This document shows positions 3,410 through 58,566 of a stretch of 64,000 nucleotides of DNA, piece by piece. The translations under genes were made by a program, and so were the position numbers. Where the stretch lies: positions 1 through 64,000 of IMG/VR virus record IMGVR_UViG_3300025413_000017, one strand, 5' to 3'. The notes under the pieces were generated by a model that was not told the origin of the DNA, did no database searches, and saw only the letters and a program-made list of their open reading frames with translations. The stretch is from an uncultured virus (IMG/VR IMGVR_UViG_3300025413_000017). Lineage: Duplodnaviria; Heunggongvirae; Uroviricota; Caudoviricetes. How positions within the stretch are numbered: the first letter of the stretch is position 1; the number at the start of each line of letters is the position of its first letter.

Positions 3410-3507
3410 TAGTTCCACCCACCACCAATACCAACCAATACAAAAAGAAAAAATGCTAATGCACCAAGAAAAAGTCCATGTACTAAGATATTAATGAATA
3501 ATCCCAT
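3409..3507 (-). CDS. Tiny membrane peptide (32 aa, MGLFINILVHGLFLGALAFFLFVLVGIGGGWN)
   Basis: Read by hand; TAATG coupling on both sides; one hydrophobic segment. Confidence 0.55.
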   Translation of the reverse strand: MGLFINILVHGLFLGALAFFLFVLVGIGGGWN

Positions 3508-3809
3508 TAGTAATACTCATCCTCATCTGTAACAACTTCTTCTGTTACTTCTTCTTCTCCTTCAACAGTTTCAGTTTCTTCAACATCTTCAATTGCTGGT
3601 TCTGATTGTTCTGTTAGAAGACTATCAACAACACTTTTAAACTGTGGACCAACAACATTGTCCCAGAGTTCATTAAAGTAATGTTGAGTATTTTCATTCA
3701 TTGCTTCAAAAGTAAGTTCAGCACCTACTTCTGGTTTAATCCAATCCCATTCACCCTTGGCATTCTTTACTTGAAGTGAAGCACCAATGTTTACTGATAA
3801 TTTTAACAT
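3507..3809 (-). CDS. Hypothetical protein with acidic C-terminal tail
   Basis: Strong AAGGAGG ribosome-binding site and an upstream promoter. Confidence 0.65.
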   Translation of the reverse strand: MLKLSVNIGASLQVKNAKGEWDWIKPEVGAELTFEAMNENTQHYFNELWDNVVGPQFKSVVDSLLTEQSEPAIEDVEETETVEGEEEVTEEVVTDEDEYY

Positions 3810-3827
3810 CTTATCCTCCTTACTATA

Positions 3828-3856
3828 ATTATAGATACTATTTCATTTTATTTCAA
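3828..3856 (-). promoter_or_regulatory. SigA-type promoter TTGAAA-N17-TATAAT
   Basis: Near-consensus boxes with a 17 nt spacer, upstream of the AAGGAGG RBS. Confidence 0.7.
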
Positions 3857-3857
3857 G

Positions 3858-3938
3858 TGGATGGAGAGGGATTCGAACCCCCGAACAATAAAGAACTGGT
3901 TTACAGCCAGCCGCGTTTGGCCACTTCGCTACCCATCC
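3858..3938 (-). tRNA. tRNA-Tyr (GTA)
   Basis: GGATGGG acceptor stem, GCTGG-CTGTAAA-CCAGT anticodon arm, variable arm, GGTTCGAATCC T-loop. Confidence 0.92.
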
Positions 3939-3940
3939 GG

Positions 3941-4031
3941 TGGAGGAAGAAGAGGGATTCGAACCCTCGGTGGGCTATAAACCCACGGTTGTTTAGTAGA
4001 CAACTGCCTTAAACCACTCGGCCATTCTTCC
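3941..4031 (-). tRNA. tRNA-Ser (ACT), unusual A34 anticodon, CCA encoded
   Basis: GGAAGAA/TTCTTCC acceptor stem, perfect GTTGT/ACAAC stem around loop CT-ACT-AA, long variable arm GTGGG..CCCAC, GGTTCGAATCC T-loop. Confidence 0.88.
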
Positions 4032-4035
4032 AGTA

Positions 4036-4090
4036 GGTCAATAGCACTCCTAGTATAAAGGAGGTGAAAACTAAGCAGATACTATTGACC
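4036..4090 (-). ncRNA. Hairpin RNA between tRNAs with an anti-Shine-Dalgarno loop (UCACCUCCUUU)
   Basis: Outer stem GGTCAATAGTA/TGCTATTGACC, inner stem CTTAGT/ACTAGG, loop TTTCACCTCCTTTAT. Confidence 0.5.
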
Positions 4091-4092
4091 AG

Positions 4093-4166
4093 CGCCCCCG
4101 GTAGGACTTGAACCTACAACCTGCGGGTTAGAACTCCGATGCTCTGTCCAGTTGAGCTACAAGGGC
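4093..4166 (-). tRNA. tRNA-Arg (TCT) with a weak anticodon stem
   Basis: GCCCTTG/CGGGGGC acceptor stem, GCTC/GAGC D-stem with A20 (Arg identity element), loop GT-TCT-AA, GTAGG-TTCAAGT-CCTAC T-arm. Confidence 0.82.
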
Positions 4167-4176
4167 TGTTTTATTC

Positions 4177-4205
4177 AGTATAGTTAAATCAGTATTTAGA
4201 ATCAA
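4177..4205 (-). promoter_or_regulatory. SigA-type promoter TTGATT-N17-TATACT driving the tRNA cluster
   Basis: 17 nt spacer; the -10 box ends 10 nt before the tRNA-Arg 5' end. Confidence 0.7.
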
Positions 4206-7400: not shown

Positions 7401-7872
7401 TTTCCGCCGCTTTCTTAATTTTCAAATCATTAATGTAATCTCTGTTTGCTTTTTTACAAGGTTCACAAGGAACTTCTTTTCTTCCTAAGTGACCTTTATA
7501 AGCACTGTATGTACCACATACTCTGGCCTTTCGACCACGCCCTTGAATCTTAGTTCTGTTTTCTTCTTTTTCTCTTTTTGCTTCACTAACACTATACCAA
7601 AAAACTGTTTCAGGTTTGATAAGTATTATGTCTCTGTTCATCCTAATGGCAACTCTATCTTTTTCAGTTGTACCACCCCAATAACCATGGGCTTCATACT
7701 TAAGGGCATGTTCTAGGCAGGCATCCTTTACAGGACAAATTGCACATCTCTCTTTAATAACTTTAGAGACAACCGAACCTCTACCAGGATAAAACATATC
7801 TGTTGGTAGGTCTTTACAAATAGCATCACTTTGCCAACTGTAATCAATAACTTCTTGGTTTTCTCTTCTCAT
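7381..7872 (-). CDS. whiB: WhiB-family transcription regulator with a C-terminal Cys/His extension
   Basis: W...AIC, FYP, C..CPV...CL..AL and GYWGG.TE.DR; extra C-terminal CGT..AY..H.....PC.PC. Confidence 0.9.
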   Translation of the reverse strand: MRRENQEVIDYSWQSDAICKDLPTDMFYPGRGSVVSKVIKERCAICPVKDACLEHALKYEAHGYWGGTTEKDRVAIRMNRDIILIKPETVFWYSVSEAKREKEENRTKIQGRGRKARVCGTYSAYKGHLGRKEVPCEPCKKANRDYINDLKIKKAAENGEFTF

Positions 7873-7886
7873 ATAATTATAGAAGG

Positions 7887-7996
7887 GATATTGGTGAGAA
7901 GGAGTCCCCGGGAGGAGGAATCAATTTCAACTGCGACTCCCGGGCGACCCTGTAAATAGACCCATTTTCTGAGTCTGCAACTCCTTACCTAATATC
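7887..7996 (-). ncRNA. GC-rich multi-stem structured intergenic element
   Basis: Nested pairings GATATT/AATATC, AAGGAGTT/GACTCCTT, AGACTCA/TGGGTCT and CCCGGGAG/CTCCCGGG. Confidence 0.5.
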
Positions 7997-14551: not shown

Positions 14552-17103
14552 TAGAAGTTATTAACTCCAAATACTGTATAGTTTATTTGCCAAACAGTAG
14601 GTAGTTGATTATTTGCTAATAGTATATCTTTAAAATATGGTCCACTAGAAATAGTGTTGTCTATATTATAAATTGAAATACCATAATTAATTGGGTTGTC
14701 TGCTTGAGTTGAAATTCTAATTGCTTGTACTCCAGTTGAATTTGCGGCTGCACTTAGTAAAGAAGCAATACTAACTGAAGAACCAAAGGTTACAGAATTT
14801 AAATAATTTGTAACTGCATTTTGAATAGATGTGTTAGCAACAATTGGGTTTGTATTAGGAGTATAGACAACTGAGAAATTTATTGCTAGTGGCAAGAACT
14901 TTGCTATATGAGTTAGTGTGTTTGAACCAACAACTCTACTTTGTTGAGAAAGATTGTCAACACTTACAACATCTGCATAGTAACTGTGTGAAATAGTTCC
15001 TACCTGGTAATTAACAGAACTAGGATAATTGGTTAAATAACTTCCTGTAGGGTCAACTGCTTTTAGGGCAACACCACCTATGTCTAATATACTTCCTGCA
15101 GTTTTTGTATTGTCATAGACAGGGTATGAAACAGAAACCCAACTAGTATTATTAGAAGCGATGTTACTTGTAAGGTTATTTGCAAGAACAATTTGGTTAG
15201 GGTTACCAGGAATCAAAGAAGTAATATAGTTTCCTGTTCCAATTCCAGAAATTGTATTGTTCCCGTAAGTACCACTAATTACCAAACCTACTTGCAATCC
15301 GGAGATTGAAGTAGAAGTATAAAGAACATTTGTACCTGAGAGGCCAGATGCTACTAAAGTTGTGCCATTTGTAGTTACAGGGTCAATTGCAATTGGGAAA
15401 CTTATACTTCCAAAAGTAATATAACTTGGAACATTCCCTGAAACAACTTGGTTAGGAAAGTTGGCAATTGGATCTTGGGTAAAATTAATATAATAGTCAC
15501 CAACGGTAGGCATAGAACCATTTGCTTGAACAAAATTATTTGCTTGGTAAGAACCACCAAGACCACTTGTAGTAATTGTATTACTAGTTACCATTACAAC
15601 TTGTTCTGTTGCGGTTTGGGTATTTGTACTATTAATAAAAATATCAACAAAATTAGAGTTTAGTATTTGACCACCTGAAATAATTGTTCTACTACTAATT
15701 GGTGTGTAAGTAGATTGAAGTTGAACAGTCGCCCCGGTATAAGTTGCAGGAGAGTTATTTGGTCCTGGTATGAAAGTTACTCTAGGAGCACAAGTTCCAC
15801 TAATATTTTGGTAATAAGTGTAATCAACATTTCTTGTAAATATAGTTTGATTAGGTGAATTTAAGTTAGTACCAACAACTTCATAACCTGCCGGATAACT
15901 AAATTGTGAATCTGGAATCTTACTATAGATAGTATTAACAGCGGTAGTATTTGAACCACTAGTAACTATAATATTCCAAGGAATGTTTTGGTTAAAAGTT
16001 ACAGTAACACCACTTGATACAACAGCGTTGGTACCAGTTACTGTAATACCAATTGTATTTTGATAATTCAAAGAAATGCTATTTAGTAGACCACTAATAG
16101 CAGTTGCAACGTTTGCAAAAGTACTTGTACCATTTAAAGTAGTTGGTGCAGTACCAGAATAGACATAAGCAATGTTTAAGTAACCACTTGCAGTAGGTGC
16201 TGTTCCTGAAAGGTTATAGTTCGTTCCGTCATAAGTAACAGTTCCTGTATAAATACTAGCAGGAGTGGTACTTGAAATTGGTATAGAAACATTTGGTTCT
16301 AGTGTTCCCAAGTAACCTGAAGCAACCAAACTTCCAGATATTGCTATAAGTTGTGCTTGGGTTTGCAACCCAATATTAAAAGCTGCTGAACCACTAATTA
16401 CTGTACCAATTTGAAGATTTTCAGAATAATTTTGTTGAGCATTAACTATATTAGTTTGAGTGACAGAAGGATTTTGTTGAGCAATAGATTGAAACTTAGA
16501 AATTGTCCCTGCAAAGTTAGAGAAAGCAGTGTTTAAGAATCTTTGTTGAAGTTGACTATCAGTTTCAGTATCACTACCACCTGAAAGTGGGTAAGTATTA
16601 GTTACTGTGGTTACACCTACCAAAGGACTTGTAATTTTAGTTATGGTATTTGGGTCTAGGTTATTGAAAGAACCAGGAAGTGTTGAAATAATTGGAACAT
16701 TAACACTTGTTTGACCACTTGCTACAGTTGCAGGGCTAGTTGTTGTAAAAGCAACATTGGTAAAGTATTGATTAAGGTTTGCTGAAACTTGGGTGCCTAG
16801 CGGGACATCATAGTTTTGTACTGCAGGACTTGTTGTGCTAAAAACAGCAGTACCAATGGAACGAGTACCAAGTTGTCTAGTAATACCAAAAATGTTTACA
16901 AAGGCGTCAAGTTCTGAACCAAAATAACTTGTAACATCCAAACCATAAGTAAGCAGAGTTGAGTTATTGGTAGCATTTGCTATTTCTTGTGCTACTGACT
17001 CCATAATCTTATAAGTAGCACTACCTACAGTTGTGTCCCAAGTTGGGTCAGAAACTGAAAGTGAGGTTAATAGTCTAGTTAATATAGTATTTGTATCAGC
17101 CAT
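14551..17103 (-). CDS. Baseplate J-like protein with a large central insertion
   Basis: G.ELD.....FGITR..GTRS.G...F, TN.....GGSDTETD..L..R, and a C-terminal I..AV..YLN....G..V segment. Confidence 0.85.
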   Translation of the reverse strand: MADTNTILTRLLTSLSVSDPTWDTTVGSATYKIMESVAQEIANATNNSTLLTYGLDVTSYFGSELDAFVNIFGITRQLGTRSIGTAVFSTTSPAVQNYDVPLGTQVSANLNQYFTNVAFTTTSPATVASGQTSVNVPIISTLPGSFNNLDPNTITKITSPLVGVTTVTNTYPLSGGSDTETDSQLQQRFLNTAFSNFAGTISKFQSIAQQNPSVTQTNIVNAQQNYSENLQIGTVISGSAAFNIGLQTQAQLIAISGSLVASGYLGTLEPNVSIPISSTTPASIYTGTVTYDGTNYNLSGTAPTASGYLNIAYVYSGTAPTTLNGTSTFANVATAISGLLNSISLNYQNTIGITVTGTNAVVSSGVTVTFNQNIPWNIIVTSGSNTTAVNTIYSKIPDSQFSYPAGYEVVGTNLNSPNQTIFTRNVDYTYYQNISGTCAPRVTFIPGPNNSPATYTGATVQLQSTYTPISSRTIISGGQILNSNFVDIFINSTNTQTATEQVVMVTSNTITTSGLGGSYQANNFVQANGSMPTVGDYYINFTQDPIANFPNQVVSGNVPSYITFGSISFPIAIDPVTTNGTTLVASGLSGTNVLYTSTSISGLQVGLVISGTYGNNTISGIGTGNYITSLIPGNPNQIVLANNLTSNIASNNTSWVSVSYPVYDNTKTAGSILDIGGVALKAVDPTGSYLTNYPSSVNYQVGTISHSYYADVVSVDNLSQQSRVVGSNTLTHIAKFLPLAINFSVVYTPNTNPIVANTSIQNAVTNYLNSVTFGSSVSIASLLSAAANSTGVQAIRISTQADNPINYGISIYNIDNTISSGPYFKDILLANNQLPTVWQINYTVFGVNNF

Positions 17104-58425: not shown

Positions 58426-58505
58426 TTTACTTCTCCTTGTTTCAAGGCAATTTACATATTTTGTAAACTGCTAACAGATCTAGGAAATCAGAATCTGCGA
58501 GGGGT

Positions 58506-58548
58506 GGGTAGGAGCCAGAAGGCGGTGGAGGGCATCTGACCCCTACCC
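58506..58548 (-). ncRNA. 14-bp GC-rich hairpin with a C-rich loop (UGCCCUCCACCGCCU) in the capsid 3' intergenic region
   Basis: GGGTAGGGGTCAGA/TCTGGCTCCTACCC stem; no U-tract follows. Confidence 0.5.
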
Positions 58549-58566
58549 GATTTGTTGCTAAGACAA

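Follow-up and report, generated by a model that had tools for sequence, protein, structure and literature searches.

A hairpin in a phage tRNA operon carries a loop complementary to ribosome-binding sites and has counterparts in five other phage lineages

The spacer between the genes for tRNA-Arg(UCU) and tRNA-Ser(ACU) of an uncultured phage consists essentially of one hairpin, and this element is probably a small regulatory RNA since a tip of this kind is carried by unrelated stems in five other phage lineages. The reading we prefer, tentatively and at somewhat less than an even chance, is that an uncatalogued phage family of small hairpin RNAs has a member encoded in the spacer, the working part of which would be a single-stranded loop complementary to ribosome-binding sites (RBSs). 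The window analysed here is a 64-kb stretch of DNA from the start of a 74.6-kb IMG/VR record with an estimated completeness of 46%, and its minus strand carries nearly all predicted genes. The tRNA region was found with zero differences in four other IMG/VR contigs, one of which (G004, 132.9 kb, 84% complete) represents a fuller genome of the same phage. Both this phage and its host are uncultured. An actinobacterium is the likely host, judging from the WhiB and Rpf-like transglycosylase domains (Pfam) encoded by the phage and from the matches of its helicase among cultured phages, 224 of 226 of which belonged to phages of Actinobacteria (25–29% identity in the 12 records listed).

The tRNA cluster is encoded on the minus strand. 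It comprises tRNA-Arg(UCU) without an encoded CCA (4092..4166; Rfam tRNA model, 56.3 bits), the hairpin (4036..4090), tRNA-Ser(ACU) (3941..4031; 58.3 bits), and, as the last gene, tRNA-Tyr(GUA) (3857..3938); all three tRNAs were identified by both ARAGORN and the Rfam tRNA model. A promoter-like site, TTGATT-17-TATACT (4177..4205, minus strand), ends 11 nt 5' of tRNA-Arg. It agrees with the consensus at 9 of 12 positions and, as a consensus match only, would be where transcription of the Arg-hairpin-Ser-Tyr unit begins. Neither a promoter-like nor a terminator-like site was found between the hairpin and tRNA-Ser, so the hairpin is most simply part of the tRNA precursor. Its location in a tRNA operon, with no intervening promoter-like site before the next tRNA, also makes co-transcription and release by tRNA processing plausible, in agreement with an earlier interpretation made from the letters alone (the sequence-only reading), which had placed the hairpin inside the operon. 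Of the features of tRNA-spacer-derived small RNAs, a position between tRNAs of one unit was observed, and the processed ends are predicted. The cluster is followed on the same strand by a unit (3507..3856) consisting of a promoter-like consensus match after tRNA-Tyr, TTGAAA-17-TATAAT (3856..3828), and a conserved 100-aa gene with the strong Shine-Dalgarno (SD) sequence GUAAGGAGGAUAAGAUG (3809..3507). The anticodon ACU of tRNA-Ser, with A at position 34, is unusual in bacteria and phages; this tRNA is identical at 67 of 94 aligned positions to the tRNA-Ser(GCU) of L019 (3513-3602).

The 60-nt spacer (4091..4032, minus strand) forms a single hairpin, 4090..4036, composed of a 5' arm (4090..4070), a loop of 15 nt (4069..4055), and a 3' arm (4054..4036); the stem has 19 pairs and is interrupted by two bulges. 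Its assignment as a hairpin RNA element is based on the fold, the score of a covariance model, and the family alignment described below. The stem starts 2 nt past the tRNA-Arg discriminator (4093 according to Rfam) and ends 4 nt 5' of tRNA-Ser, exactly the edges given by the sequence-only reading. The folding energy is -21.5 kcal/mol versus a mean of -9.7 kcal/mol for shuffled spacers (z -5.0), and none of 200 shuffled spacers gave an equally stable fold. The loop, UUUCACCUCCUUUAU (4055..4069), is open: the unpaired probability is at least 0.85 for each of its bases and at least 0.96 across CACCUCCUU. That the spacer is one real hairpin with an exposed loop is thereby borne out. An alternative pairing, AGGAGUG with CACCUCCU, which had been proposed to make the RNA bistable, reaches -19.0 or -16.5 kcal/mol. 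Since the fold that buries CCUCC costs 2.5–5 kcal/mol, the hairpin RNA is not bistable at equilibrium, and its dominant fold leaves CCUCC accessible. Moreover, the SD-like partner, AGGAG of the 3' arm, occurs in the window copy only, as judged by eye for the stems of the other five members, and the idea of bistability finds no support.

No terminator-like site was found at 4036-4090, where the 3' flank reads UACUGGAAG, and the hairpin lacks the G+C-rich stem followed by a U-run that defines an intrinsic terminator. Expression of the downstream tRNA-Ser and tRNA-Tyr would need read-through of the hairpin. A search of the window spacer with the Rfam covariance models, among the checks proposed by the sequence-only reading, matched no family at E values up to 10.

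The sequence match and the stability of the fold carry little weight by themselves. The loop core CACCUCCUUU (4057-4066) occurs once in the window, and the 10-mer CACCTCCTTT was likewise found once with both strands counted. At least one copy of CACCTCCTTT was present in 17 of 100 shuffles, which means that the match by itself lacks significance. When the DNA was folded in a crude sliding-window scan, many stretches of coding sequence equalled the hairpin, and stability alone is thus no argument either. The weight of the hairpin rests on its conservation in relatives. Both of these controls, together with a sporadic distribution among relatives, favor a reading in which the element is a DNA palindrome, neutral or selfish, or resembles an anti-RBS hairpin by chance, with no function at the RNA level. 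We consider this very improbable. Transposon-like palindromes keep their arms, whereas here the arms are unrelated and the center is conserved; in all six copies of the family, the same strand is sense with respect to the neighboring genes; and the 132.9-kb record contains a single copy of the element.

Relatives of the region were retrieved through the neighboring 100-aa gene, which yielded 28 diverged loci with 48–81% protein identity. tRNA-Arg(UCU) lies upstream of this gene in all 28. In most of them, it is separated from the next tRNA by 1–4 nt or is directly followed by a gene, and no hairpin is present. In L015 and L016, tRNA-Arg and the same tRNA-Tyr are adjacent, and it is at this point that the hairpin and tRNA-Ser(ACU) appear inserted in the window. 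Apart from the window's own clones, which were not counted, a hairpin after tRNA-Arg was found in one of the 28 loci, L017. This hairpin is 62 nt long, has 21 predicted pairs, and starts 1 nt past the point where ARAGORN ends tRNA-Arg(UCU). In sequence, the stem has no relation to that of the window, while the loops agree at 13 of 18 positions and differ at the other five by transitions only; the L017 loop has UUCCC where the others have CCUCC. The tree of the 100-aa protein, in which 10 of 17 inner forks are open, does not establish a sister relationship of the window and L017.

Folding of all intergenic DNA of 18 loci revealed two further hairpins, in L021 and L213, with the loops UUUUUUCCUCCAUUUC and UUUUACCUCCAUUUCG, respectively, and again with unrelated stems. 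Among the 120 predictions made on both strands of this intergenic DNA, CCUCC was present in four sense-strand loops and GGAGG in none. In both L021 and L213, the hairpin lies right behind a promoter-like site, TTGAT(G/T)-17-TATA(C/A)T, and 5' of a phage panD gene (aspartate decarboxylase), and a second hairpin with the loop UUCCUUCCUUC follows the first in tandem; the promoter-like site and the two hairpins together occupy 6745-6912 in L021 and 7100-7325 in L213. No hairpin was found in the panD upstream regions of two other panD-containing records, G009 and G011, and in searches of L224 (the L213 record) and L208, no Rfam family matched the L021 or L213 hairpins at E values up to 1. Between the second hairpin and panD, the L213 record also contains an element that resembles a tRNA but has a shorter anticodon arm (L224 1607-1674; Rfam tRNA model, 40.7 bits) and was not called by ARAGORN. 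This element could give an RNase P site freeing the hairpin RNA.

A scan of IMG/VR with the 17-nt panD-type loop gave 34 matches. Four of them were loops of long hairpins, namely the two known ones and two new ones, L373 and L366, which originate from contigs richer in GC (about 0.5), lie between co-oriented genes, and possess unrelated stems. Because they were found through the loop sequence, L373 and L366 carry no independent evidence of loop conservation. The family is thus small, comprising six lineages (window, L017, L021, L213, L373, and L366) with hairpins of similar size and unrelated stems; the five members other than the window are located after tRNA-Arg (one), upstream of panD (two), or between genes (two). 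The window-type loop pattern gave 23 matches in IMG/VR. Five were known hairpins (four clones of the phage studied here and the L017 record), and the other 18 were unrelated, several being in coding sequence or antisense to gene starts. A pattern combining a T-arm with the loop and its flanks produced 32 matches in IMG/VR with no new member, and at least 120 stretches in metagenome contigs, none of which was convincing among the matches listed. A hairpin from the metagenome contigs, L131, was rejected as a member owing to its unrelated loop. Beyond the window, tRNA-Asn and tRNA-Gln of G004 are separated by a 66-nt spacer (16960-17025) that resembles a decayed tRNA 3' half (T-arm and acceptor end); it was rejected as a family hairpin since it is not a hairpin of that build.

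Two further intergenic hairpins of the window, at 58426-58566 and 7870-7994 (minus strand), contain CCUCC on the transcribed strand. One has an 8-nt loop, CCUCCACC, and a folding energy of -28.2 kcal/mol; the other has UUCCUCCUCCC at the border of stem and loop and lies 5' of the WhiB-like gene. Of the window's 17 CCUCC words on the transcribed strand, four fall in intergenic DNA, which makes up roughly 4% of the window; this count leaves out the word at 1536, probably a coding one, as well as the word at 3942 within tRNA-Ser.

Covariance models were used to compare the hairpins beyond their loops. A model made from the window copy alone assigned 20.5, 17.0, and 13.8 bits to the sense strands of three other members and 5.7, 1.1, and 3.2 bits to their antisense strands. 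Model R2 was built only from the L017, L021, and L213 hairpins, the window copy being left out. Applied to the 64 kb with filters off, it returned the window hairpin as the top match, with 38.6 bits and an E value of 9e-7 versus 16.3 bits for the runner-up, although its alignment was fitted to the structure of the window's copy and favors that copy somewhat. On the antisense strand, the window scored below the 1.8-bit reporting floor. L373 and L366 scored 35.2 and 25.5 bits, respectively. Another R2 match, L225/L226 (19.1 bits), was rejected because it is antisense within a 620-aa ORF. Two spacers with CCUCC-like words were also not counted: the 160-nt Arg-Val spacer of L023, which has no R2 match at E values up to 1, and the 71-nt Pro-Tyr spacer of L021, absent from the R1 matches (filters off).

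In the alignment of four members, 62 of 65 cells were paired (95.4%), and both sides had changed in 14 of 17 pairs. None of 500 shuffles equalled these values, and 24–50% of cells were paired in slid controls. Such compensatory changes are proof of structure only between homologous hairpins, and the case for homology consists of synteny within the two pairs and of loop similarity. The loop word was thus found to be conserved while the stems vary by compensation, in an alignment that is model-fitted and a family of which two members were found by their loops. With this reservation, sequence comparison indicates that the loop is conserved on covarying stems in six lineages, with CCUCC in five, the pattern that the sequence-only reading had proposed to look for in relatives.

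The numbers of predicted pairs are close, 19 in the window, 21 in L017, 18 in L021, and 21 in L213. With its length of about 20 bp, the stem could be a target for RNase III-type cleavage or could keep the folding of neighboring tRNAs separate; the hairpin would then be a structural or processing spacer whose loop has no function in trans. The similar pair counts in the four folded members, corresponding to about two helical turns, and the fact that the hairpin fills the tRNA spacer almost exactly would suit such a role, and the tRNA cluster of phage T4 contains stable RNAs, one of them reportedly an RNase III substrate. Nevertheless, it leaves the conservation of the loop across six unrelated stems unexplained, since RNase III does not read loops. 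Most relatives have neither spacer nor hairpin after tRNA-Arg, and with only 1–4 nt to the next tRNA in most cases no spacer is needed for processing. We regard a purely structural role as decidedly unlikely.

A cis-acting hairpin recognized by RNA polymerase or a protein, as in antitermination, an operator, or a translational repressor site, with the anti-RBS likeness being secondary, appears unlikely as well, if less so. Hairpins bound by proteins classically keep their loop while their stems vary freely, as is the case here. A promoter-like site is located within about 90 nt upstream in three of the six members, and in L021 and L213 the tandem hairpins come right after it; a layout of promoter and two hairpins recalls put of HK022 and nut of lambda. 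On the other side, no protein emerged as a candidate partner, the members occupy three different contexts, and CCUCC with U-rich flanks exactly suits an anti-RBS function, its complement being used as a real RBS elsewhere.

The composition of the loop bears on what it may recognize. The family pattern is GUUUU..CCUCC.UUU, in which the invariant parts are GUUUU and, after a variable stretch of two to four positions (pyrimidine or A/U), CC and UU. The sequence-only reading had taken the loop for a copy of the anti-SD region at the 3' end of 16S rRNA. The 11-nt match to the 16S tail does hold for the window's copy, the only one to have it. The family, in contrast, is not a strict 16S copy: GUUUU differs from the quoted 16S context (GAUCA), and the other five loops share CCUCC (four) or have UUCCC (one), so a conserved match beyond CCUCC, the mark of a 16S 3'-tail mimic, does not appear in the sequences compared. 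The 5' U-tract is instead the complement of the A-rich spacer between the SD and the start codon, and the loop is better called anti-RBS than a 16S copy because the U-tract matches this spacer and not 16S rRNA. Over the SD core itself, both amount to the same. The family consensus fits better as the complement of SD plus A-rich spacer and would still predict SD masking.

Sequences outside hairpins illustrate this complementarity. With a gene start defined as an SD, an A-rich spacer, and a start codon within 0–8 nt, followed by at least 40 open codons, 16 of the 30 non-hairpin panD-type matches were reverse complements of gene starts in other phage contigs, as were 5 of the 18 non-hairpin matches of the window-type pattern. 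An A-rich SD spacer is common in the genes of the window's phage and in these 16 gene starts. Complementarity alone is weak evidence since any CU-rich loop pairs with purine-rich RBSs. As to functional class, the element has a stable hairpin and an unpaired pyrimidine-rich loop complementary to the SD. The 10-mer CACCUCCUUU was also found after phage tRNAs in IMG/VR in at least 118 cases (L238-L355). Among those listed, 73 of 118 represented part of a tRNA-Val(UAC), namely its anticodon arm, which can easily mislead motif scans, and in 14 no tRNA was called at the T-arm match. The remaining 31 of those listed (21 distinct sequences) were heterogeneous, with a true tRNA followed by the 10-mer outside any tRNA; the next base was C in 16 of the 21 distinct cases listed. 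In the 16S tail, C follows the 10-mer. The 10-mers of L240 and L339 were read by eye as antisense gene starts.

The least probable of the explanations considered is that the loop acts as a decoy of the 16S 3' tail for factors that bind or cut it, for example, MazF-type toxins directed at the anti-SD as a phage defense. The toxin MazF-mt11 cuts single-stranded C^ACCU, and its only mycobacterial target is located immediately 5' of the 16S anti-SD (PMC12274833). The window loop contains 11 nt of the quoted 16S tail, including a single-stranded CACCU, the MazF-mt11 cleavage motif, and the host is probably an actinobacterium. However, CACCU is present in only one of the six family loops, the others having UACCU, UUCCU, or AUUCC; the invariant GUUUU is outside the 16S context; and no such toxin is known for the host of the window's phage.

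Specific targets were sought among the gene starts of the phage. In the fuller genome, 16 of 182 predicted genes pair the loop with the RBS at -10 kcal/mol or lower, but over all 182 genes the duplexes were no better than those of shuffled loops (19.5% of 200 shuffles were equal). Pairing of this strength was found for 9 of the 37 genes in a divergent module of small genes and for 7 of the 145 genes elsewhere. The module, located at 121-133 kb of G004 on the opposite strand and outside the window, has markedly stronger SDs and may be an early-gene module. Pairing of the window loop with the RBS of the next downstream gene was not significant (p 0.17), and neither were three of four loop tests for the next gene in L021 and L213; the first hairpin of L021 gave a marginal result (p 0.036). 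No specific target emerged from the 182 genes or the next-gene tests.

According to the reading we prefer, the hairpin would be transcribed together with tRNA-Arg, tRNA-Ser, and tRNA-Tyr from the promoter-like site at 4205-4177. Processing of the tRNA-Arg 3' end and cleavage by RNase P at the 5' end of tRNA-Ser, the latter setting the 3' end of the hairpin RNA, could then free an RNA of about 57–60 nt, which the 19-bp stem would protect. Its loop would pair with the SD regions of SD-led mRNAs (GGAGG and an A-rich spacer) and either block 30S binding or expose the mRNA to decay, in the manner of 6C, cuckoo, and RNAIII-type RNAs with their C-rich or anti-SD loops. Transcription, processing, accumulation, pairing, and an effect on translation are all steps that we infer for this RNA. 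A broader proposal, which we consider doubtful, is that several unrelated phage lineages make anti-RBS hairpin RNAs, often matured by tRNA processing, that mask strong SDs and reprogram translation, the window being one example of a convergent and undescribed class. An example would be the shut-off of host genes or early phage genes with strong SDs. In a bolder variant, the window copy would additionally act as a decoy for the anti-SD-cutting MazF-type defense toxins of Actinobacteria.

Should the family act as proposed, phage tRNA clusters would have a second role, delivering a translation regulator alongside tRNAs, and the phage would have a simple way to discriminate between SD-led messages and those that are leaderless or have a weak SD. 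Leaderless mRNAs are common in Actinobacteria. In the window, a TATAAT box only a few bases 5' of the ATG of the WhiB-like gene (7870-7885, minus strand) suggests that the mRNA of this gene is leaderless. The distinction between SD-led and leaderless messages matters in Actinobacteria because about a quarter of their mRNAs are leaderless (PMC12274833).

Bacterial chromosomes are known to encode base-pairing RNAs with anti-SD loops; the candidate of this kind described here is carried by phages and, in the case of the window, sits within a tRNA operon. No anti-SD hairpins of phage tRNA operons were found in the literature, where a description could have been missed. Among RNAs derived from tRNA transcripts, the 3'ETS of leuZ and the ITS of metZWV in Escherichia coli are by-products of tRNA precursors that act as base-pairing RNAs and sponge other small RNAs with Hfq. 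Unlike the window element, they are not hairpins with an anti-RBS loop. Species 1 and 2 of phage T4 are small, stable non-tRNA RNAs of a tRNA cluster, freed by tRNA processing enzymes; they are partly tRNA-like and, at roughly 120–140 nt, larger than the window hairpin, and we know of no anti-SD loop reported for them.

The cuckoo RNAs of Alphaproteobacteria (alpha-r14/RSs0680/CcsR and NfeR1) are similar to the family in build since an anti-SD-like loop, CCUCCUCCC, is kept on highly variable stems with compensatory changes (PMC4615179). They differ in having another loop word, 2–4 tandem hairpins, a chromosomal location with their own promoters and terminators, and a host of a different phylum, and the Rfam search revealed no homology of the window, L021, or L213 hairpins to the cuckoo/alpha-r14 family. 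In RNAIII of Staphylococcus aureus and other small RNAs of Firmicutes, UCCC loops start the pairing with target RBSs (PMC4615179). The L017 member resembles them in having UUCCC in its loop, whereas RNAIII-type RNAs are unrelated in sequence, chromosomal, and have known targets.

The 6C small RNA of Actinobacteria (Mycobacterium, Streptomyces, and Corynebacterium), whose phylum is probably that of the host, uses C-rich loops to bind RBS regions without a chaperone (PMC6486639). Both it and the family have hairpins with unpaired pyrimidine-rich loops, which in 6C pair with purine-rich RBSs and would do so in the family, and 6C represses translation of its targets without Hfq or ProQ (PMC6486639). 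The family loops are U-rich with a CCUCC core and 6C has runs of at least six C; the window element is a single, phage-borne hairpin inside a tRNA operon without a match to the Rfam 6C family. In mycobacteria, panD is a validated target repressed via the C-rich loops of 6C (PMC6486639). Two members of the family, in L021 and L213, lie in the leader of a phage panD gene, and these leader hairpins would form a striking parallel to the repression of panD by 6C.
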